From Hydrogenibacillus sp. (GTDB taxonomy: Bacteria; Bacillota; Bacilli; Thermicanales; DSM-22653): a stretch of DNA of 64,000 bases. The translations under genes were made by a program, and so were the position numbers. The notes below the pieces were generated by a model. That model made no database searches and had not been told where the DNA came from. It saw nothing but the letters and a program-made list of their open reading frames with translations. Location of the stretch: positions 3,660-67,659 of the forward strand of contig JADBKT010000003.1 in assembly GCA_014896255.1 (NCBI GenBank). The letters run 5' to 3'. The number at the start of each line of letters is the position of its first letter. The stretch's first letter is position 1. Of this stretch, positions 1 through 15,426 are shown in pieces.

Positions 1-316
1 CGCGCACCGCCAGCGTTGACAGCGCCGCACCGTACGTCGCCGCGCCCTGGAGCGCGGGCGAGAGCGCGGGTGCATCGAACGGACGGGCGGACAGCGCCTG
101 CACGATGAACGCGCTTCCCGCGGGCTGGTCGAGCAGCGTATCGCGAAAGAACGCCTCGACGAACGCCTCGAGCCGGATACCCTCGCCCTCCGGATCGCTC
201 CGCAACCGTTCCAAGGCGTTCTGTACGCCGGCGTTGCGCTGGACGATGCGCTCACTGAAACGGTCGACGGCCATCTGCAGGAGGATGTTAAAATATTCCT
301 GTTCGTGCGGATGCAT
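1..316 (-). CDS. Hypothetical protein in the hydrogenase accessory cluster (C-terminus truncated by the window edge)
   Basis: Manual translation from ATG at 316 gives MHPHEQEYFNILLQMAVDRFSERIVQRNAGVQNALERLRSDPEGEGIRLEAFVEAFFRD..., open to base 1. A G-rich RBS lies upstream and the ORF is co-oriented with the huc operon. It is absent from the ORF track. Confidence 0.7.
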   Translation of the reverse strand, partial: MHPHEQEYFNILLQMAVDRFSERIVQRNAGVQNALERLRSDPEGEGIRLEAFVEAFFRDTLLDQPAGSAFIVQALSARPFDAPALSPALQGAATYGAALSTLAVR

Positions 317-376: not shown

Positions 377-1651
377 TCATTGGACTTCTTGCTGCGCCTC
401 GCTTCGGCGCCGGGCGATCTCCCCGAGCGTCTCGGCGAGCGTCTCGGCGGCCTCACGATCGCCGTACGCTTCAAACGTGCGTTTAGCTTCCGTAAGCCGC
501 GGCACCGCCCGGGAGAAGGCCCCCAGATGGGCGAGCGCATTGCCCTGGTTGGCCAAGACGCGCGCCCGGCGAACGGGATCCCGCTGCACCTCCGGCAGGC
601 CGAGCACGTCTTCGTAGAGCGCCACCGCCTCCCACAGGTTGTCTTCGATGTGCGAAGACTTCACATGTTGAATGGCGTTGGCCAGATTGATCGTCGCGCT
701 GGCCCAGAGATCGGGATGCGTTTCTTTCGTGAAATGACGGAGCGCCTCGCGGAGCGATTGCACGGCCATGGCCGCTCTCAGCGCGTGCCGCTCCTCGTGC
801 ATCGGCATGGACAAGTAGGCGACGGCCAGATTCATGTGGGCCAAGGCAAACGCTTCCGGATGGCGATCCCGCCGGAGCACTTTCAACGCTTCGTGATAGC
901 AGCGGACGGCCTCCAACAGCTTCGACTTTTGCCCGCCGGCTTCGGCCTGGAGCGCGGATCCGAGCTCCAGCCAGATTTCCCCCCGCACGTCATGCATCGC
1001 CGTCGGTGCGAGCAGTTCGAGCGCCGTCCGGTACCCATCGATCGGAGACTGCACTGCCTCGGCCGCGCGCAGAGCCTCGGCATCGCCCGAAGCGCCGCCC
1101 GTACCGCTCACCGGCTGGACGGCGAGCGACTGCAACATCGCCGCCCGCTCGGCATAGAGGCGCGCGGCGAAGACCGGAGAGCACGCGTGGACGCTCCGCG
1201 CCGCTTCATAGAGCAGCGAGAGCGCCTTCGGCCAATCATGAGACGCCATCGCGGCATACGCATGGGTGGCGAGAAGAAAGGCCCGGACTTCGCCTTCCGT
1301 GCCCTCATGGGACGGCGGGTCGACCGGAAACTGCAGCCGCCAGGCGACCGCCTGAAGCAACCGGCGCATGTCGCCGTCCGCGACCGCCTCCGCCGCATGG
1401 AGCGTCTTTTCCTCCGGGTTCAAGACGAATCGGTTGAACCGGCCTTCCGGCGTGTCGGGGATGAGCGACCAGACGACCTCTTCCGGTTCTCCGGACAAAG
1501 CCGCTTGTAAAAAGCGCCAGGCTTCCGGCCACGGTTCCGGCATTTCGCCGTACAAAAGCCGCCGGAGGAGCGCTTCCGCCCCCGCCACTTCCGGAAGTAA
1601 AAAAAAGCCCGCCGCACCCGGGAATACGCCGATCGCCTGGGGTCTTTGCAT
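377..1651 (-). CDS. Tetratricopeptide-repeat protein, hydrogenase-associated
   Basis: Repeated TPR-like helices (EIWLELGSAL...LLEAVRCYHEAL; AHMNLAVAY; ATINLANA; VLANQGNALAHLG). RBS AAAGGAGG. Located in the hydrogenase operon. Confidence 0.8.
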   Translation of the reverse strand: MQRPQAIGVFPGAAGFFLLPEVAGAEALLRRLLYGEMPEPWPEAWRFLQAALSGEPEEVVWSLIPDTPEGRFNRFVLNPEEKTLHAAEAVADGDMRRLLQAVAWRLQFPVDPPSHEGTEGEVRAFLLATHAYAAMASHDWPKALSLLYEAARSVHACSPVFAARLYAERAAMLQSLAVQPVSGTGGASGDAEALRAAEAVQSPIDGYRTALELLAPTAMHDVRGEIWLELGSALQAEAGGQKSKLLEAVRCYHEALKVLRRDRHPEAFALAHMNLAVAYLSMPMHEERHALRAAMAVQSLREALRHFTKETHPDLWASATINLANAIQHVKSSHIEDNLWEAVALYEDVLGLPEVQRDPVRRARVLANQGNALAHLGAFSRAVPRLTEAKRTFEAYGDREAAETLAETLGEIARRRSEAQQEVQ

Positions 1652-1702: not shown

Positions 1703-1993
1703 CTATGCGGGCTCGAGCGGAATGCAGAGCGCGCCCATCCGTTCGTCCCACCGGCCGCTGCGCTTCCCGACCGGGAGGCCCCCCGGCCGGTCGCGCAGGA
1801 GCTCCCCGACGTACAAGCTGCGGTCGCCCTGCCGGTTGATCTGCTTCAACAACAGCCCGCCGCTCGCCGCGCGCCGGACGGGCATGAGCCAGAGCTCCTC
1901 GCCGCGGACGAGGGCGATGACCGTGTTCGTCGGGAAGCGCGCCGCTTCATCCGCCGTCAAGTGCAGGTAACCTTTTTCCGTAAACTCGATCAC
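1703..1993 (-). CDS. Small hypothetical protein, hydrogenase accessory (96 aa)
   Basis: GTG start with an AGGGGA RBS, protein-like composition, and position between the maturation protease and the TPR gene. Confidence 0.7.
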   Translation of the reverse strand: MIEFTEKGYLHLTADEAARFPTNTVIALVRGEELWLMPVRRAASGGLLLKQINRQGDRSLYVGELLRDRPGGLPVGKRSGRWDERMGALCIPLEPA

Positions 1994-2078: not shown

Positions 2079-2591
2079 TTATATCCCCGCTTTCCCTGAA
2101 GTCGCGTCCGAAAGCGATTCGCCCTGCGTGACGTTTTGCATGAGGCGTTCGGCGAGCCGTTCCATCGCCGCTTCGACCTCAGGGCTCAAGCCGAACCCGT
2201 AGTCGACGTCCTTCGCTTCGATCAGGTAAACCGTCACGTCTTCGGGGAATCGCTCTTTGAGCAGCCACCGCCCGACGGCGAGGGCATGATCCCAGCGAAA
2301 ATCGTGCAGGTTTACGCCGGCAAGCGGCGGCGTCTCGGCTTCCTCCCCCGGGAGCTCGAAGATCGTCCCCGGTTCGGCCCCGGTCCGGGCGGCGTCGACG
2401 ATGATCAGGCGCTTGGCATCTTGAATCTGAAACACGACGTCCAACCCGGCGGTGCCGCCGTCCGCCAGGCGGACGCCGGGCGGCGGCCCGAGCGCCCAGA
2501 GCTTCCGGATGAGCGTCGGGCCGACGCCGTCGTCGCGGCGGAGCAAGTTCCCGCAACCGATGATGAGCGTGGACACGTCGACTCCCCTCAT
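2079..2591 (-). CDS. hupD: Hydrogenase maturation endopeptidase (HupD/HybD family)
   Basis: N-terminal IIGCGNLLRRDDGVG, then DGGT, IIVDA and the H motif (NLHDFRWDH). ATG at 2591 overlaps the hucL stop (TGATG); GTG at 2576 is an alternative start. The track ORF extension to 2954 is shifted-frame hucL sequence. Confidence 0.9.
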   Translation of the reverse strand: MRGVDVSTLIIGCGNLLRRDDGVGPTLIRKLWALGPPPGVRLADGGTAGLDVVFQIQDAKRLIIVDAARTGAEPGTIFELPGEEAETPPLAGVNLHDFRWDHALAVGRWLLKERFPEDVTVYLIEAKDVDYGFGLSPEVEAAMERLAERLMQNVTQGESLSDATSGKAGI

Positions 2592-4219
2592 CAGAACTTC
2601 GTCACTTCGTACTTCGCGATCTCTTGCTTGGTCTTCGCGTCGTAGCGTGGACCGTGCAGACGAGGCACGAGTCGAGCTCTGCGCGATGCGGGCGAGCTCC
2701 ACCGGATCTTCGGGATTTCGATCGGCGTGCCGATCATCGCCGTCTCGATCGGCCCCCGCTGATCGTGGCGGTCGCGCGGACCGATGTTCCACGCCGTCGG
2801 CGTGATCACCTGATAGTTTTCGATCTTCCCGTCCTTGATCACGATCCAGTCGGACAGCGCCCGCGGCGGCTTCCGTCGATCCGAAGCCGCGCCCTTCCGA
2901 AGCTCCTTCGGCTTGATGTAGAACTTGTCGTTCAGGTCGATGCGCCGGAGCCACTCCTTGACGCGCAGATAGTACTTCGGCGCCTCGTGCATCCGGGCGA
3001 GGACGCGGACCATGACGCTCGGACCGATTTCCTTCACGATATTGTAGATGAGCGGATCATAGTCCTGGTGCGCTTCGGCGCCAGGCCGGCCGGCGATCAC
3101 CTGGCGCGCCAGCGGCCCCGCTTCCAGCGCGAGCTCGCCGACCCCGGGGACGTCGTAGCGGGGGGCTTTGGCCCACGTGTACTTGCCTTCTTTCGCCCCT
3201 TCCTCCGGATCGATCGGATCGGTGACGCCTTCGAACGGATGGAACGCGCCGCCGCCGCGGAAGAAGGAATGCGTATGATCTTCGCGCACGCGCGCCTGGT
3301 CGAAATCGTGGAAGTTCTCCCCGTCATACACGCCGGAACGGGCGATGAGCGCGCGGTTGCGCCCTTCGATCGTCGGGTAGCGGTACAGATCCGGTTCGAA
3401 GAAGCTACCCGTCGCGAGGAAGCGCCCCGGGCCGCGGCCGTATTGGTCGAGGCCGAGGTCCAAGCTGTAGCGGATAAAGAGGCCGAGGTCGGAATCGCGG
3501 TGTTCGGGCTTTTCCTCCAGCCAGTTGAGGACGTCTCTTCCACGTCTTGTTCTCCAGCCAGCGCTCCACCGAACAGCCGAGCCAGACTTTCTCCAGCCAG
3601 TATTCGCGGTAGTGCTCGAGGATGGAGATCGAGCGCGTGACGCGTCGGAAAGCGTCGGCGCGCACATCACGCCGCCGGGCACCATGAAGCTGGAGGTGGC
3701 CACTGGCCGCCGAAGATGGCGTAGATCTCGACCGGCTTGGCCGATTCGATGACGCCGATTTCGTAGCTCGTGCCCATAGGGCGCCCAGCGCTTCACGACT
3801 TCATCGTACAGCGGCGATTTCTTGTAGTTTTCATGGGTCAGGCCGATGGCAAAGAGCGCGTAAAACCAGCGCGGGATGCTCTGCAGCGTCTCCACCGCCT
3901 GCGCGATGTTCCGGACAAGCGTCGCGTTCGGCGGGACCTCCGTGCTCCAGGCGGTGTCTATGGCATAGACCGCCTTCGTCAAGTGGCTGCCCCCGCAGAT
4001 GCCGCAGATGCGCGGCGTGACGATGAGGCCGGCCTGCGGGTCTTTGCCTTTTAAGATGATCTCAAACCCGCGAAACATCGTCGCTTCCGTCCACGCATCG
4101 ACGACGACGCCGTTTTCGATGGACACGCGGACGTCCAAGTCCCCTTCGACCCGGCCGAGCGAGTGCACCTTGAGATCCTTCCGATCGATCGTCTTGACTT
4201 CGGACCCTTTTTGGCTCAT
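2591..4219 (-). CDS. hucL: [NiFe]-hydrogenase large subunit, group 2a (Huc/HupL type); contains four compensated frameshift segments as sequenced
   Basis: GRVEGD, L1 motif PRICGICGGSH, SSFMVPGGV, YTWAKAPRY, NYQVITPTAWN. The L2 motif DSCLVCTVH is encoded at 2647-2673 but in a shifted frame. A C-terminal extension follows it. Confidence 0.9.
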   Translation of the reverse strand: MSQKGSEVKTIDRKDLKVHSLGRVEGDLDVRVSIENGVVVDAWTEATMFRGFEIILKGKDPQAGLIVTPRICGICGGSHLTKAVYAIDTAWSTEVPPNATLVRNIAQAVETLQSIPRWFYALFAIGLTHENYKKSPLYDEVVKRWAPYGHELRNRRHRIGQAGRDLRHLRRPVATSSFMVPGGVMCAPTLSDASRARSPSSSTTANTGWRKSGSAVRWSAGWRTRRGRDVLNWLEEKPEHRDSDLGLFIRYSLDLGLDQYGRGPGRFLATGSFFEPDLYRYPTIEGRNRALIARSGVYDGENFHDFDQARVREDHTHSFFRGGGAFHPFEGVTDPIDPEEGAKEGKYTWAKAPRYDVPGVGELALEAGPLARQVIAGRPGAEAHQDYDPLIYNIVKEIGPSVMVRVLARMHEAPKYYLRVKEWLRRIDLNDKFYIKPKELRKGAASDRRKPPRALSDWIVIKDGKIENYQVITPTAWNIGPRDRHDQRGPIETAMIGTPIEIPKIRWSSPASRRARLVPRLHGPRYDAKTKQEIAKYEVTKF

Positions 4220-4303
4220 CGTTCTCCACCGCCTTTTCGTATCGTTCTGATGATGATCGTCCTGACGCGATCGCCGTGTGCCGGCATGACCACGCGGATG
4301 ACA

Positions 4304-5275
4304 TCAGGGCACGAACATCTCTTCTTTGGCCCACTTCGGCGCCGCCGCGCGCGACACCGCCGCGCTGATGGAGTAGCTCAAAGCGTCGACGCCCTGCGGC
4401 ACTTCCTTCGGGATCGAGCCCAGCACCTTCTGCGTCTTGAAGACCGTCCCCGGCGCGAGGTCGAAGAACGGGAACTGCGGTTCGGTGCACCCGATGCAGG
4501 GCATCCCGGAGCGCGTCTTCGACGATTGCCGGTTCCAGAGGATGCGGTTGCACGGAGAGTGCGTCAGCGGGCCGCGGCAGCCCTGTTCGTAGAACAGGCA
4601 GCCCTTGCGCGTGCCCTGTCCGAATTCTTCCACCGGCTCCTTCCATTCAAAATATTGCACTCGTGTGCAGCCGGTCTGCGTAAACGTCTTGAAGAACGTC
4701 TGCGGACGCTGCAGTTCATCGAGCTGGACGTCCTCCAGCCGGCCCGTGGCGACGGCCACGAGAATCTGCGTCACCCAATCGGGATGCGCCGGGCAGCCCG
4801 GAATGTTGATCACGGGGAGACCGGCCTTGGAGCGGAAGTTCTTCCCCAAAAACCCGCCGTGCTCGCCTTTTAAGTACTGCAGGCCGACCGACTCCGACGG
4901 ATTCGGCTTCGTCGCCGGGATGCCGCCCCAGCACGCGCAATCGCCGATGGCGACGACAAACTGCGCCTTGTGGGCCAGTTCCCAGATCCAATCTTTTTTC
5001 GGGCGATCGTGGAACATGTCGTAGCGCCCGGTGCCGTTCGGCCCCTGGATCACCGTGCCCTCGAAGACGAAGATGTCGAGCGGGATCTCGTCGTTTAGGA
5101 TCTGATGCACCAGGCGGTGGACCTGCTCGCCGAACTCCATGGAGATGGAGTGGTGATACAGGATGTTGATGCCGAAGTCGCGCACCAGGTCGATCACCGA
5201 AGGCTCATCCGCGTTCAGGAACGACTGCGTGTTGCCGTTACACGCGCCCCCGTGCATCCAGAGGAGATTGGCCAT
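4304..5275 (-). CDS. hucS: [NiFe]-hydrogenase small subunit, group 2a (no Tat signal)
   Basis: Starts MANLLWMHGGACNGNTQS after a GGAGGTG RBS. Motifs GDCACWGG, PGCPAHP, QTGCTR, GCLF..GCRGP, SPCN..PCIGCTEP. Confidence 0.93.
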   Translation of the reverse strand: MANLLWMHGGACNGNTQSFLNADEPSVIDLVRDFGINILYHHSISMEFGEQVHRLVHQILNDEIPLDIFVFEGTVIQGPNGTGRYDMFHDRPKKDWIWELAHKAQFVVAIGDCACWGGIPATKPNPSESVGLQYLKGEHGGFLGKNFRSKAGLPVINIPGCPAHPDWVTQILVAVATGRLEDVQLDELQRPQTFFKTFTQTGCTRVQYFEWKEPVEEFGQGTRKGCLFYEQGCRGPLTHSPCNRILWNRQSSKTRSGMPCIGCTEPQFPFFDLAPGTVFKTQKVLGSIPKEVPQGVDALSYSISAAVSRAAAPKWAKEEMFVP

Positions 5276-5319
5276 ATACCCCGCACCTCCGTCACATGGC
5301 TTGATGGATTTGGATGGAT

Positions 5320-5991
5320 TCATTTGACAAGGGCCTGGCGCGCCGCCTTGAGCCGCGCCACCCACGCGTCCATGCCCGAACCGGTGCGCGCGGACACTTC
5401 GAGGACGGGGATCCCCGGGCGCACGCGCTCCACGGCTTCGATGAAGCGCGCCCGGTCAAACCCGACCGCCTCCGCCAGGTCGATCTTCGTGATCACCGCG
5501 AGATCCGAACTGTTGATGAGCGTCGGGTATTTTTCCGGCTTGTCCTCGCCCTCGGTGACCGAAAAAAGGACGGCGCGCTCGTTTTCTCCGAGGTCATAGC
5601 TGGCCGGGCAGACGAGGTTGCCGACGTTTTCGATGAAGAGATAGTCGAGTTCCGCGAGATTCCATCCTTCGAGCGCTCGGGAGATCATCTCCGCCTCGAG
5701 GTGGCAGACGGTTCCCGTGGTGATCTGGCGTACCGAGGCCCCGCTTTCTTTCAGCCGCTCGGCGTCGTTGTCCGTCGCCAAGTCCCCGACGACCGCCGCC
5801 ACGCGGTAGGAACGGCCCAGCCGGCGGAGCAGTTCGGTGAGCGCCGTCGTCTTTCCCGCGCCGGGGCTGGAGACGAGGTTGACGACGTAGACGCCCGACC
5901 GTTGGAAGCGCTCCCGCAATTCGCGGGCCAAGACGTCGTTTTTCTTGAGCACGTTTTGCCGGACTTCGACGATGCGCGGGGTGATCGTCAC
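5320..5991 (-). CDS. hypB: Hydrogenase nickel incorporation GTPase HypB
   Basis: SSPGAGKTT P-loop, VCHLEA, ENVGNLVCPA, TKID. Confidence 0.95.
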   Translation of the reverse strand: MTITPRIVEVRQNVLKKNDVLARELRERFQRSGVYVVNLVSSPGAGKTTALTELLRRLGRSYRVAAVVGDLATDNDAERLKESGASVRQITTGTVCHLEAEMISRALEGWNLAELDYLFIENVGNLVCPASYDLGENERAVLFSVTEGEDKPEKYPTLINSSDLAVITKIDLAEAVGFDRARFIEAVERVRPGIPVLEVSARTGSGMDAWVARLKAARQALVK

Positions 5992-6021
5992 CGCCTTCGA
6001 CCGCCCTTCCGATTATGGTCC

Positions 6022-6375
6022 TTACGCCTCCTCGACCCCTTCCAGGGCGACGAGCTCGAGTTCCCGCCCGGCGCGGACGTCGCCCGATCGTGTGCCGCAT
6101 TCGGGGCAACGCATCGGGACGGGGGCATCCAGCGTCCGTTCCGCTTGACAAGACGGGCAGAAAATCGTCACCGGCACATCTTCGATGATGAGCGCCGCCC
6201 CTTGGGCCGGCGTGCCCTCCGTGACGACGTCGAAAGCGAACAATAGCGCCTCCTTGACGACGCCGGAGAGGGCGCCGATGCGCACGTGGAGCGCCGTCAG
6301 GCGGCGTAAGCCTTGTGCCTGGGCCGATTCGACGGCCAATTCGACGAGGTTCTGCGCGATCGACAGTTCATGCAT
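6022..6375 (-). CDS. hypA: Hydrogenase nickel metallochaperone HypA
   Basis: MHELSIA N-terminus, two CxxC motifs (CPSC, CPEC), GRELEL. Confidence 0.95.
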   Translation of the reverse strand: MHELSIAQNLVELAVESAQAQGLRRLTALHVRIGALSGVVKEALLFAFDVVTEGTPAQGAALIIEDVPVTIFCPSCQAERTLDAPVPMRCPECGTRSGDVRAGRELELVALEGVEEA

Positions 6376-6898
6376 CGGAAAGCTCGCGCGACAGGTGACG
6401 CGCCAGACTGAAGACGAAGTTGAGCGCCGGCTGCACCTCCGGATCGCTGAGCGCGCGCATGAGGCCGATCAGCCCGACGCGCCTCTGCACCGCCGACGGA
6501 TCGGCCGTCTCCTGGGCCGCGCGCGTCATCGCCCGGGCCACTTTGCCGACCATCGCCACCGAACGCGTATCGAGGACATCGGACTTAAACAGCGCCTGGA
6601 CCTGCGGCGAATCCAAAAACTCCTGCATCTTCCGGCCGGCATTGAGCGCCGTCTCGATTCGGGAAACGTAAGCCGGCGTCTTGAGTCCTGCCCTGAGGGT
6701 CTGGACCAATTCGTTGACCGAATCGGCCAGCTCCGGCCCCCGGGCCAGGAAAGATTCGAGCATGTCGACCAAAAATCCGATCGTCTCCAGCTTGTCGAGC
6801 AACCGGACGAGCTGTTCGATCGTCTTCGGGTCGGACAGCCGTTCCACCAGCACGCGATCGACCGGCATCTCCAGCTGGTCAAGCGCCGCATTCGCCAC
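6368..6898 (-). CDS. DUF1641 family protein (all-helical), first gene of the hydrogenase operon
   Basis: GTG start after an AAAGGAGG RBS. C-terminal GLIGLMRALSDPEVQPALNFVFSLAR is typical of DUF1641. The stop overlaps the hypA start. Confidence 0.75.
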   Translation of the reverse strand: MANAALDQLEMPVDRVLVERLSDPKTIEQLVRLLDKLETIGFLVDMLESFLARGPELADSVNELVQTLRAGLKTPAYVSRIETALNAGRKMQEFLDSPQVQALFKSDVLDTRSVAMVGKVARAMTRAAQETADPSAVQRRVGLIGLMRALSDPEVQPALNFVFSLARHLSRELSDA

Positions 6899-7028
6899 CG
6901 CGATCGACCTCCTTTCGCGAACATGATTGCCAGGCGGCTCACAAGATGCCCTAGGGGGTTCGTTTCATAACTTCTTACAAATTTTTTCTCATATAAATTT
7001 TCGAAACTCACCGCCCCGGTTAATTTTA

Positions 7029-7057
7029 ATTAAATGATAACGCTCCAAAACTGTCAA
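7029..7057 (-). promoter_or_regulatory. sigmaA-type promoter of the hydrogenase operon
   Basis: Minus strand TTGACA (7052-7057), 17 nt spacer, TTTAAT (7029-7034), inside a strongly AT-rich intergenic region. Confidence 0.7.
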
Positions 7058-7083
7058 GCGGTGAAAAATTCATTCTGAAATTC

Positions 7084-8199
7084 TTATTGTAACTGCTTAT
7101 ACAATGATTCGTATTGCGACACGCGCGCTTCGGCCGAAAACAGGCGCGCCACGCGCGCCCGCCCGGCGCGTCCCATGCGCGCGCGCAAATCCGGATCGTC
7201 GAGCAGCCGGCGGACATAAGCGCTCATCGCCTCGACATCGCCGACTTCGGCCAAAAAGCCGGTCTCCCCGTCGGCCACGACTTCGGCGAGGCCGCCGGCG
7301 GCGGTGGCCACGACGGGCGCCTCGCAGGCCATCGCTTCCGCCGCCGCCAGTCCGAAGCTTTCCGTTTCGGAAGGCAGGAGGAAAACGTCGGCGATCGAGT
7401 ACAAGGCCGAAACGTCGTCCACCTTGCCGAGAAAAAGGACGTCTTCTTCGACGCCGAGCGCTTGGGCATCCGTCCTGGCACGGGCAAGCTCCGGCCCGTC
7501 GCCGACCATAAGGAGCCGCGCCCGATGCGTACGACGGACGCCCGCAAAGACCTTCACCGCATCCGTCACGCGTTTGATCGGCCTGAAATTGGACACGTGC
7601 AGGAGGAGGGATTCGCCGTTCGGGGCCAGGTGCCGCCGGAGGACGGCGTCCTCCCGCCGCTTGTAGTGATCCAGATCGACAAAGTTATAAATGACCTCGA
7701 TCGGCCGGTCGATGTCGAACGCCCGCCGCGTCTCCTCGGCGAGGCTGTGCGACACGGCGGTGACCGCATCGCTCTTTTCGATCCCCAGGCGGATCGCGGC
7801 GGTGAGCGAGAGATCATAGGCGTGGATGGAGATGTCGGTGCCGTGCAGCGTCACGACGGTGCGCACCGGGCGGCGCGGGCTCATCGCCCGGGCGAGAAAG
7901 GCGCACGCGGCAAAGGGCACGGCGTAATGGACGTGCAACACGTCGAGTGCGTGGTTTTGGATCACGTCGGCCATTTTGCAGGCTAAGGCGACGTCAAACG
8001 GCGGATAGCGAAACACGTCATAGCTCGGGACGTCGACGACATGCACGACGATGTTTTCTTGAAACGCGCTCAGGCGAAACGGCATCCCGTCGGAAATGAT
8101 GTGCACTTCATGCCCGCGCCGGGCGAGCTTCCGGCCGAGTTCGGTGGCGAGCACGCCGGAACCGCCGACCGAGGCGTAGCACGCGATGCCGATGCGCAC
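7084..8199 (-). CDS. bshA: N-acetyl-alpha-D-glucosaminyl L-malate synthase BshA (GT4)
   Basis: GTG start MRIGIACYASVGGSG, LHVHYAVP, TLHGTD, HVSNFRPIKR, ESFGLAAAEAMAC. Confidence 0.93.
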   Translation of the reverse strand: MRIGIACYASVGGSGVLATELGRKLARRGHEVHIISDGMPFRLSAFQENIVVHVVDVPSYDVFRYPPFDVALACKMADVIQNHALDVLHVHYAVPFAACAFLARAMSPRRPVRTVVTLHGTDISIHAYDLSLTAAIRLGIEKSDAVTAVSHSLAEETRRAFDIDRPIEVIYNFVDLDHYKRREDAVLRRHLAPNGESLLLHVSNFRPIKRVTDAVKVFAGVRRTHRARLLMVGDGPELARARTDAQALGVEEDVLFLGKVDDVSALYSIADVFLLPSETESFGLAAAEAMACEAPVVATAAGGLAEVVADGETGFLAEVGDVEAMSAYVRRLLDDPDLRARMGRAGRARVARLFSAEARVSQYESLYKQLQ

Positions 8200-13734: not shown

Positions 13735-15426
13735 TCACGGCGCCGCTTTCCACCACTGTTCGGCATTCAACCGCTCGCCCAAACGGACCATCTCAACGCC
13801 GTGCATCCCCGGCGCGACGGCGACATATGCCTCCGGACGAAGGAGCGGGATGAGCGGGGCCGCTTCGGCGACGGAGCGAAACGCTTCGCGAAGCGCCGGC
13901 GCATCGATTTCCCCCGGTATCGCCTCATAGGCAGCCTTGAGCGCCCGGTCGACGGCATCGTCCGCATAGTGCATGACGTTCAATCCCAATCGGGCGATCG
14001 TATGCGCCTTCCCCAGATAACGCCACCACTCGCCCGGTTCCGAGACATCCGCGAGCGGCCAGAGAAAAAGCGGCGCACCGTGACCGCTCATCGTCTCGGC
14101 GTAAAACGCCTCGTGCGGGAGAGGCTTTTCGCTCACCGCGTAGCCCGACGTCCCAAGCACGTCAGCAAGCGCCGGCGCCAAAAGCGCGGCGTACGGTTGA
14201 TCACGATCATACGCCAGATCGCCGAGCGCCAGTCGGGAGTCGGCCCCTTTCGGCGCATTTGCCCCGTCCGACTGCTCCATGAGCGCGTGTCCGGGCGGAA
14301 AATAGCCGGTCTCCGGACGCGCCGCGAACTCCCCGGCTTCGATCGCCGCGACCAGCGGCCGCCGATCGATCGTCGCCAACTTCCGCCGAACGTCGTCCGG
14401 AATGCGCGTCACGTCGGCGGCGAGATACAGCGCGTACGGAAGCGGGACGCGCATCAACCGAAAATCGTTCGGAAGCGCCGGTTTTTTCAACGAAATGACG
14501 ACATCGTAAGCCGCCACAGGCGCCTCGTGCCCGGCATGTCCGTCGTCAGGGCCGAGCGTCCCGAAGGTGAATTCCAGCGCGTCGGCGTACGCCGCATCCC
14601 CGGCTTTCGTCGATGCCCGCTCCAGCTCCAGCCGGCCTTCCGCGGCCACGACGACGCGGTAGGCGCCGCTTACGGGCACCTCGCCGGCGCGGATCCGCTC
14701 GGCCAATGCCTCGACATCGGCGCGCCGCGCGATCTTTGGGACAGCGGCGTGAGGGAACAGGGGCGCGGTCAACGCGCGGAAAAAGAGCGCCGTCGGGTGC
14801 GTCGCGCGAAGGACAATCCAGTCGCCGTCGGTCACAACGCCGAGCACGTCTTCTCCTTTTCCGCTGCGGTAGGCCGAAGCGCCGTCCAGGGCCGACAAAT
14901 GATCGCGGAATACCCCGGTATAAAACGGGCTCAAATAGAGCGCCAACGTCCGCCTGACGTCCAGATCGGTGATCGGTTGCCCGTCGCTCCAACGCGCCCC
15001 ATCAAGACGGAAGCGAACGGTGACCGCCCCGTCTGCACCGCGCTCGACGCGGACGTCTTGGGCGAGATCGCCGACCCACCGCCCGCGTTCATCGTATCGA
15101 AACAAACCCCGATAGGCGAGCGCCCAGTAGGGCGACGGGCGCACCGCCTTCGCGCTGAGCCCCAGCGGATCCGCCTCGATGGGCTCGGCCGTAAGCACGC
15201 GGATCACCCCGCCGCGCACCGGGACGGCCGATTCCGATGCTGGCCTCCCGTCCTGCGCGAAGCGATCCGCCTCCCCGCTCGATCGGGCCTCCGGGTTCCA
15301 CAGACAGCCGCCGAGCATGACCATCGACAGCAAAAAGAGCGCGGCGGCCGCTCCCCTACGCCACCGCGAACCCGCCTGAGCGCCGCGCCTCTCTATCCGC
15401 TTCCCCTGTATCCGCATCTTCGGCAT
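13735..15426 (-). CDS. ABC transporter substrate-binding lipoprotein, family 5-like (orphan)
   Basis: Lipobox MLGG|C after a hydrophobic stretch. YRGLF, GDLA, RWSDGQPITDLDV resemble SBP family 5. Start is uncertain (15426, or 15516 overlapping the nrdR stop). Confidence 0.7.
   Translation of the reverse strand: MPKMRIQGKRIERRGAQAGSRWRRGAAAALFLLSMVMLGGCLWNPEARSSGEADRFAQDGRPASESAVPVRGGVIRVLTAEPIEADPLGLSAKAVRPSPYWALAYRGLFRYDERGRWVGDLAQDVRVERGADGAVTVRFRLDGARWSDGQPITDLDVRRTLALYLSPFYTGVFRDHLSALDGASAYRSGKGEDVLGVVTDGDWIVLRATHPTALFFRALTAPLFPHAAVPKIARRADVEALAERIRAGEVPVSGAYRVVVAAEGRLELERASTKAGDAAYADALEFTFGTLGPDDGHAGHEAPVAAYDVVISLKKPALPNDFRLMRVPLPYALYLAADVTRIPDDVRRKLATIDRRPLVAAIEAGEFAARPETGYFPPGHALMEQSDGANAPKGADSRLALGDLAYDRDQPYAALLAPALADVLGTSGYAVSEKPLPHEAFYAETMSGHGAPLFLWPLADVSEPGEWWRYLGKAHTIARLGLNVMHYADDAVDRALKAAYEAIPGEIDAPALREAFRSVAEAAPLIPLLRPEAYVAVAPGMHGVEMVRLGERLNAEQWWKAAP

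Follow-up and report, generated by a model that had tools for sequence, protein, structure and literature searches.

The window analysed here, a stretch of 64,000 nucleotides with a G+C content of about 63%, carries a Huc-type hydrogenase operon at its left end, and the genes of this operon are encoded on the minus strand. The first gene encodes a 176-aa protein with a C-terminal DUF1641 domain, and we refer to it as hucM for the reasons given below. The minus-strand location of hucM had not been mentioned in an earlier, sequence-only reading of the same DNA. The features of the locus, in the order of transcription, are as follows.

11086-9956, minus strand: mqnC (TIGR03699, 468 bits, cut-off 428), 3.06 kb upstream of hucM
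7029..7057, minus strand: candidate huc promoter, read by eye, with -35 TTGACA (7057-7052), a 17-nt spacer and a -10-like TTTAAT (7034-7029)
6908..6913, minus strand: Shine-Dalgarno sequence AGGAGG (6913-6908), 9 nt before the hucM GTG, by direct sequence reading
6368..6898, minus strand: hucM homologue, 176 aa, first gene of the operon, an ORF from GTG at 6898 to TGA at 6370-6368
6022..6375, minus strand: hypA (Pfam HypA, E=2.9e-31)
5320..5991, minus strand: hypB (Pfam cobW/HypB, E=3.6e-23), 82% identical to HypB of the Hydrogenibacillus schlegelii MAG
4304..5275, minus strand: hucS, group 2a small subunit, 323 aa, without Tat signal (7UUR_D, E=1.2e-162, gap-free)
2591..4219, minus strand: hucL, group 2a large subunit (HucL 7UUS_A, E=2.3e-185), with nine frameshifting indels
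2079..2591, minus strand: hupD-type maturation protease (Pfam HycI; TIGR00072 at 144 bits)
1703..1993, minus strand: conserved 96-aa huc-operon protein, with 85% identity to its positional counterpart in a Hydrogenibacillus MAG (L001)
377..1651, minus strand: conserved TPR-like huc-operon protein, 424 aa, 76% identical to its L001 counterpart, with a weak TPR match
2..316, minus strand: next conserved huc-operon gene, truncated at the window edge after its first 105 codons (77% identity to the 129-aa L001 protein by tblastn)

The protein-collection entry P0001 gives a 166-aa version of the hucM product that starts from an internal ATG. We preferred the 176-aa reading, because AGGAGG precedes the GTG at 6898 and the homologues of the protein begin at the same point. 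Between bshA and hucM lies an AT-rich spacer of 185 bp. The promoter at 7029..7057 is a candidate from visual reading, and its -35 box, as CTTGACA, aligns with the H. schlegelii MAG. A consensus promoter scan of the spacer upstream of hucM reported no sites, since the scan accepts only an A as the second base of the -10 hexamer.

The sequence-only reading placed a DUF1641 gene, coupled to hypA, at the head of a Huc-type operon whose small subunit has no Tat signal and whose visible part has neither a cytochrome b nor another transmembrane anchor, and our analysis bears out this description. The hypA ATG (6375-6373) and the hucM stop overlap by 8 nt (ATGCATGA), and the same 8-nt overlap was found in three relatives, the H. 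schlegelii MAG, Parageobacillus thermoglucosidasius and Kyrpidia tusciae. HucS and HucL both match M. smegmatis Huc best. Aligned gap-free over 321 residues, HucS and its M. smegmatis counterpart share 69.5% identity, and the window HucS, which begins MANLLWMHGG, aligns to that protein from residue 2, so that there is no Tat signal. The residues K212, Y229 and Y301, which bind the head group of menaquinone in the M. smegmatis Huc cryo-EM structure (PMC10017518), are identical in the window HucS. No membrane-helix-like hydrophobic 19-residue window was detected in the operon proteins of the window or in those of the downstream part of the operon seen in a relative. The enzyme is assigned to the group 2a Huc type by its Tat-less HucS, its menaquinone-site residues, its Huc-type HucL and the absence of a cytochrome b, with the hucL frame broken nine times.

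The gene order is DUF1641-hypA-hypB-hucS-hucL-hupD-(100 aa)-TPR-(125 aa)-NifU/Rieske-NHL-hypC-hypD in the H. schlegelii MAG, P. thermoglucosidasius and K. tusciae. The 96-aa protein of the window gave no family matches, and the counterparts of the edge-cut gene in relatives are 125-129 aa long. The earlier reading had allowed for a true HucM or a cytochrome b encoded left of the window; neither a cytochrome b nor a second DUF1641 gene is present in the operons of the three relatives, and no other anchor candidate is expected there because the hucM homologue would itself be the anchor.

Upstream of the huc operon, bshA, bshC, mqnC, dnaI and dnaB form a Bacillota housekeeping block on the same strand. 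The earlier reading had pointed to the menaquinone gene mqnC about 3 kb upstream of hucM. Its position is right. The arrangement nrdR-dnaB-dnaI-mqnC-bshC-bshA beside the huc operon is shared with Hydrogenibacillus only and is absent at the operon in Parageobacillus and Kyrpidia. A functional link between huc and mqnC was therefore rejected in favour of housekeeping synteny confined to the Hydrogenibacillus lineage. An exact-sequence look-up of the hucM product matched no contig. A HucS identity of 95% and a shared gene order from nrdR through the huc operon place the source organism near Hydrogenibacillus.

Frameshifts in hucL

Compared with the Hydrogenibacillus MAG (L001), hucL carries nine indels of 1-2 nt, near positions 3779, 3695, 3644, 3537, 2899, 2864, 2720, 2674 and 2645, and these had gone unmentioned in the earlier reading. 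The indels sum to a net change of -6 nt, and each frame shift is restored within 10-35 codons; the last shifted stretches put the C-terminal nickel-binding motif DSCLVCTVH out of frame. Such frameshifts are absent from hucM, hypA, hypB, hucS, hupD and the TPR gene. Further upstream, dnaB shows an apparent frame change.

These indels, together with the displaced nickel-binding motif, could mean that the locus is decaying, with hucL a pseudogene and the hucM homologue a functionless relic. The DNA of hucL is 92% identical to that of the Hydrogenibacillus MAG, and a frame scan of the unshifted HucL against Hydrogenibacillus showed that most 12-residue windows are identical, with one or two differences in each of the others. 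Most of the divergence is therefore synonymous, indicating that hucL has been under selection, unlike a long-dead gene. Every shift is compensated, and the flanking genes are frameshift-free, which also argues against decay. Moreover, the organism of the window is present in two coal-metagenome runs at depths of about 130 and 67, and the same two runs contain a relative that is about 30-fold more abundant, with hucSL about 93% identical and the frame intact. The contigs of both runs fragment exactly at the hucL region, which, given so abundant and so similar a relative, indicates an assembly or consensus artefact. A point on the side of decay came from the Logan contigs of three coal-metagenome runs, where, at a likeness of at least 99%, a single 60-nt unitig at the depth expected for the organism carries the indel at 3537, and no other contig spans any of the nine. 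We conclude that the indels are probably an assembly artefact, which is likelier than a pseudogene, and we consider a decaying locus unlikely.

Family membership of the first gene product

The DUF1641 assignment in the sequence-only reading was confirmed by Pfam, with PF07849 matching residues 139-171 at 41.5 bits and E=1.2e-10 (Pfam cut-off 21), while NCBIfam has no model for the protein. When the protein was compared with the PDB by phmmer, the best match was HucM itself (7UUS_Q, named there the Huc membrane associated subunit, E=3.5e-6; query residues 6-168 against 12-183 of the 188 in the chain), at about 27% identity to the M. smegmatis protein. The 60-residue HucM core fragment modelled by cryo-EM (7UTD_Q) also gave a match by itself. 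In the single-sequence ranking HucM was followed by YjlC/Ncp, with ForE1 far behind (E=0.87). A total of 52 homologues were found at E<=4e-31, with conserved synteny. Two regions of the protein are distinguished.

6689..6850, minus strand: N-terminal module of HucM, about residues 17-70, counterpart of M. smegmatis HucM 20-79 (7UTD_Q, E=2.6e-4; family profile 5e-15)
6386..6484, minus strand: C-terminal DUF1641 domain, residues 139-171 (Pfam), including the predicted membrane-contact head R139-R140-V-G-L-I144-G-L-M-R148

A profile built from 22 Bacillota homologues scored Ncp/YjlC (4.6e-8) and HucM (8.8e-8) nearly alike. To split the subfamilies, sequence therefore has to be combined with a cross-phylum profile and gene context, and the wider family was for this reason assembled through gene context. 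The resulting cross-phylum profile comprises 26 hucS-linked proteins from nine phyla, the window protein among them. It matched M. smegmatis HucM at 96 bits (E=1.8e-26), 60 of which were contributed by the N-terminal module, whereas Ncp/YjlC reached 49 bits (3e-12) and ForE1 38 bits (1.4e-8). The N-terminal module was matched in HucM only, and Ncp and ForE1 were matched only through the C-terminal domain. These scores place the window protein in the HucM family and not in another recruited DUF1641 lineage. A specific origin of Ncp from Bacillota HucM was also weighed and rejected, because the mixed-phylum profile scores Ncp above the Bacillota-only profile, leaving no special affinity of Ncp to Bacillota HucM.

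The gene neighbourhood was examined for the partners of the other two families. No forC-type neighbour and no adjoining ndh were found, the flanking genes being bshA upstream and hypA downstream, and hucM is the sole DUF1641-family ORF in the window.

Residues 12-183 of M. smegmatis HucM score 18.9 bits against PF07849, slightly under the cut-off of 21, and databases therefore give HucM no DUF1641 label. This sub-threshold score probably misled the earlier reader, who proposed that a DUF1641 adaptor is used in place of HucM in a distinct H2:menaquinone oxidoreductase architecture. That proposal fails, since HucM is the best PDB match of the window protein and belongs to the DUF1641 superfamily itself. 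DUF1641 and HucM are not alternatives: DUF1641-domain proteins build the complexes that carry quinone in both Huc and ForCE, HucM and Ncp are homologues, and the superfamily membership of HucM is already published (PMC13524794, Nat Microbiol 2026).

The window protein contains no Cys and one His, and no membrane helix was predicted in it, the maximum of the Kyte-Doolittle 19-residue window being 1.01. The earlier description of an all-helical protein with an amphipathic C-terminus was upheld: an AlphaFold2 monomer was all-helical (22-sequence alignment; low confidence, pLDDT 61.5, pTM 0.25), the C-terminal peptide cited there, LIGLMRALSDPEVQPALNFVFSLARHLSREL, spans residues 143-173, and the hydrophobic moment of the last 18-residue window is 0.56. 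A Foldseek search of this low-confidence model against the PDB gave nothing below E=1. Both the low pLDDT and the empty search would be expected of a chain that reaches its fold only within an intertwined tetramer, and so neither was used as evidence. R140, G142, G145, D152 and P153 do not vary among the 22 Bacillota homologues. In the alignment I144 is flanked by R139, R140 and R148, and its column contains I, L, F or V in these homologues. I144 falls opposite the Trp of the M. smegmatis HucM head and opposite the GLFGLL Phe of YjlC/Ncp, which is presumably the membrane-inserting Phe108 described for Ncp (PMC13524794).

Taken together, these results make it very probable that the window gene is the hucM orthologue of Bacillota and encodes the third structural subunit of the Huc-type (group 2a) [NiFe]-hydrogenase.

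Linkage of hucM to hucS across phyla

We then surveyed Huc-type loci by a HucS scan of GTDB representative genomes, which yielded 63 loci from Bacillota, Chloroflexota, Acidobacteriota, Gemmatimonadota, Melainabacteria, Cyanobacteria, Rhodothermales, Planctomycetota, Aquificota and others; the peptide patterns used did not pick up Actinobacteria. Among the 63 loci, 55 had an ORF near hucS that matched the Bacillota hucM profile (E 1e-92 to 1e-15), and where at least 4.8 kb of upstream DNA was available, a hucM-type gene stood beside hucS in all loci except one (51/52). The sequence-only reading had asked for a survey of the co-occurrence of DUF1641 and HucM, expecting one to replace the other. 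The near-universal linkage to hucS instead indicates that this DUF1641 gene, being of the hucM family, belongs to the standard architecture and is not a replacement. The survey thereby adds a modest point, namely that the stalk gene is nearly universal with hucS in at least nine phyla.

The order of the genes and the number of modules in the stalk gene vary by lineage. In Bacillota the order hucM-hypA-hypB-hucS-hucL is conserved, and hucM of the window lies 1.09 kb upstream of hucS. The hucM-type gene of Chloroflexota is on the same strand and about 1.1 kb upstream of hucS, as in the window. In Melainabacteria, Cyanobacteria, Rhodothermales, Planctomycetota and Aquificota, the hucM-type gene is divergent from the adjoining hucS, with gaps of 59-598 bp in 12 of 13 hits and one gap of 2.5 kb; the short gaps leave no space for hypAB between the two genes.

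This variation bears on the idea that the window protein acts mainly as a maturation or assembly factor with HypA and HypB and is not a permanent subunit. The 8-nt overlap with hypA in four Bacillota loci would fit such a role, as would the same-strand gene of Chloroflexota at the same distance of about 1.1 kb from hucS. On the other hand, the gene is divergent from hucS in five lineages, with gaps too small for hypAB, and the window protein, with no Cys and one His, has no obvious metal ligands. In M. smegmatis, HucM co-purifies stoichiometrically with HucSL, and deletion of HucM abolishes the ~800-kDa oligomer while Huc is still active (PMC10017518), which also speaks against this idea. A role mainly in maturation is thus very unlikely. 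Recruitment of a ForE-type DUF1641 adaptor instead of HucM, giving an architecture unlike M. smegmatis Huc, is extremely unlikely, since the two points in its favour, a window protein above the PF07849 cut-off of which M. smegmatis HucM falls just short and the near-equal scores of Ncp and HucM in the Bacillota-only profile, are outweighed by the membership of HucM in the DUF1641 superfamily and its rank as best PDB match, by ForE1 being the weakest relative in both the single-sequence and the profile comparison, by an N-terminal module common to HucM alone, and by the near-universal presence of the gene beside hucS across phyla.

Proposed role and relation to known systems

As the Bacillota orthologue of HucM, the window protein would most likely serve as a tetrameric scaffold and a hydrophobic tube that delivers menaquinone to HucS. 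In M. smegmatis, HucM residues 20-79 form the cage that holds the HucS2L2 lobes (PMC10017518). As in that solved complex, four copies of the window HucM may intertwine. The N-terminal modules (about residues 17-70) would then form a cage that docks the HucS2L2 lobes, and residues of about 80-176, which end in the DUF1641 domain, would build a coiled-coil tube, amphipathic and hydrophobic in its lumen. At its tip, R139-R140, I144 and R148 would rest against the membrane from the cytoplasmic side. From the bilayer, menaquinone could pass up the tube into a central hydrophobic chamber and be reduced at the K212/Y229/Y301 site of HucS beside the distal FeS cluster, and menaquinol would return to the membrane. 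Such a tube would explain how a hydrogenase with neither Tat signal nor anchor can feed the respiratory chain. The helical quinone adaptor of the earlier reading thus survives, on grounds of homology, as a cofactor-less link from an anchor-less Huc to menaquinone, and what does not survive is its claimed novelty.

There is a small chance that the Bacillota enzyme forms a supercomplex whose stoichiometry or tube organisation is unlike the 833-kDa octamer of M. smegmatis, for example a lipid-filled or filamentous one like that of Ndh-Ncp, because HucM identity is only about 27%, the Bacillota profile ties HucM with Ncp, and the gene is coupled to hypA-hypB.

The subunit, its mechanism and its membership in the DUF1641 superfamily are already published, and the locus offers no new respiratory architecture. 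The window protein itself is uncharacterised, and its orthologues are labelled just as DUF1641 in databases and in PMC12976888. The value of the present assignment lies in annotation: a "DUF1641 domain-containing protein" that heads a Huc-type operon in thermophilic Bacillota can be named hucM, including the induced gene of P. thermoglucosidasius described below, and such Bacillota Huc enzymes are expected to reduce menaquinone via the stalk subunit and not via a cytochrome b.

The closest characterised system is Huc of M. smegmatis. Its HucM (MSMEG_2261, 7UUS/7UTD, PMC10017518) resembles the window protein in being the first huc gene product, all-helical and cofactor-less (188 versus 176 aa), in its collinear arrangement of an N-terminal scaffold module and a C-terminal DUF1641-type domain, and in its partners HucS and HucL. 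The two differ in several respects. In M. smegmatis, hucM lies immediately before hucS, whereas hypA and hypB stand between them in the window; the window protein passes the PF07849 cut-off while M. smegmatis HucM stays below it; the membrane-head Trp of M. smegmatis HucM is replaced by Ile144; and menaquinone synthesis in the window host follows the futalosine route (mqnC).

In P. thermoglucosidasius, the DUF1641 proteins P0013 and P0033 are about 61% identical to the window HucM, and the operon has the same order and the same hypA overlap, in a different genus and a different genomic neighbourhood. We assume that P0013 and P0033 correspond to IMI45_RS09585 of strain 23.6. At near-zero growth this gene was reported to be induced alongside hucSL, its transcripts rising from 1.9 to 714 FPKM, and the gene was listed there as a DUF1641 protein only and not as HucM (PMC12976888).

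Ncp/YjlC, the coupling protein of B. subtilis NDH-2 (9PXK, 9SNK; PMC13524794), belongs to the same superfamily as the window HucM. The two share the C-terminal head motif G-L-(F/I)-G-L-(L/M)-R-x-L-x-D-P and a weak similarity in the first N-terminal helix, and the membrane contact and quinone conduit proposed for Ncp are those we propose for the window protein. Ncp differs in its partner NDH-2, with ndh-ncp synteny always present, and in forming lipid-filled filaments (PMC13524794), whereas the window hucM has no adjoining ndh. Similarly, ForE (YjgD/YrhD; 8RQZ; PMC8808070) is a small cofactor-less DUF1641 subunit connecting a soluble dehydrogenase with menaquinone, as proposed for the window HucM, but its partner is a molybdoenzyme and not a hydrogenase, and the likeness is confined to the C-terminal domain.

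Finally, in the archaeon Acidianus brierleyi a related hydrogenase, of group 2e, has a subunit, HysM, that was modelled as a HucM-like tube and reported to be 18% identical to HucM (PMC11018855). A stalk subunit of this kind is thus already known outside mycobacteria.

Reading frame of hucL and the source community

Compared with the Hydrogenibacillus schlegelii MAG, the called hucL gene carries nine frameshifting indels of 1-2 nt, after each of which the frame is restored within 10-35 codons, and DSCLVCTVH, the C-terminal Ni-binding motif, falls outside the called frame.

2591-4219, minus strand: hucL

No frameshifting indels were found in the genes neighbouring hucL. In the coal metagenomes (runs X1, X2 and X3; window positions 2400-7100), we found the window's organism together with a close relative that is roughly 30-fold more abundant and whose hucSL DNA is about 93% identical to that of the window. 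The hucL indels are probably an artefact of assembly or consensus that arose from the presence of this abundant relative.

A frame change was also observed in dnaB, which it breaks into two ORFs (at about 13735-13820, minus strand); tblastn with the Hydrogenibacillus counterpart as the query placed the switch between 13822 and 13774.

12200-about 14180, minus strand: dnaB, Bacillota-type replication initiation/membrane attachment protein, two ORFs

Upstream region and family label of the first gene

A promoter-like site occurs within the AT-rich spacer that precedes the huc operon, about 130 nt upstream of the start codon.

7029-7057, minus strand: promoter-like site, TTGACA-17 nt-TTTAAT

Its -35 box is kept in the Hydrogenibacillus MAG, and the site was not reported by the consensus scan. 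In the precomputed Pfam annotation, PF07849, the family of the first gene, is labelled 'HMP' and not 'DUF1641' (gene tables of the H. schlegelii locus L001 and of the Huc-type loci L003 and L004), and this label suggests that the family was renamed in a newer Pfam release.

Placement and module number in the HucM family

The placement of the HucM-like gene differs by lineage (L021-L027, L040, L060 and other Huc-type loci). In Bacillota and Chloroflexota it shares a strand with hucS and precedes it by about 1.1 kb, an interval that in Bacillota holds hypA-hypB; in Acidobacteriota and Gemmatimonadota it is found about 3.5 kb upstream of hucS. The gene adjoins hucS divergently in Melainabacteria, Cyanobacteria, Rhodothermales, Planctomycetota and Aquificota, and no HucM-like gene occurs within 8 kb upstream of hucS at the Thermoanaerobaculia locus L058. 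The Aquifex loci carry two short HucM-like genes in tandem, divergent from hucS.

L059:3767-4733 and L061:5436-6402: tandem HucM-like gene pairs, Aquifex

Outside Bacillota and Actinobacteria, HucM-family reading frames span 250-370 aa from stop to stop (L021-L060).

L033:3344-4459, L030:5965-6840 and L055:3662-4501: examples of long HucM-family reading frames

These long proteins contain two copies of the N-terminal scaffold module (LxxRLxDPxTxxxLxxLLDxL...GFLxRGxxxADS; L021-L060), and that of L033 contains three. Such proteins might carry more hydrogenase lobes per stalk.
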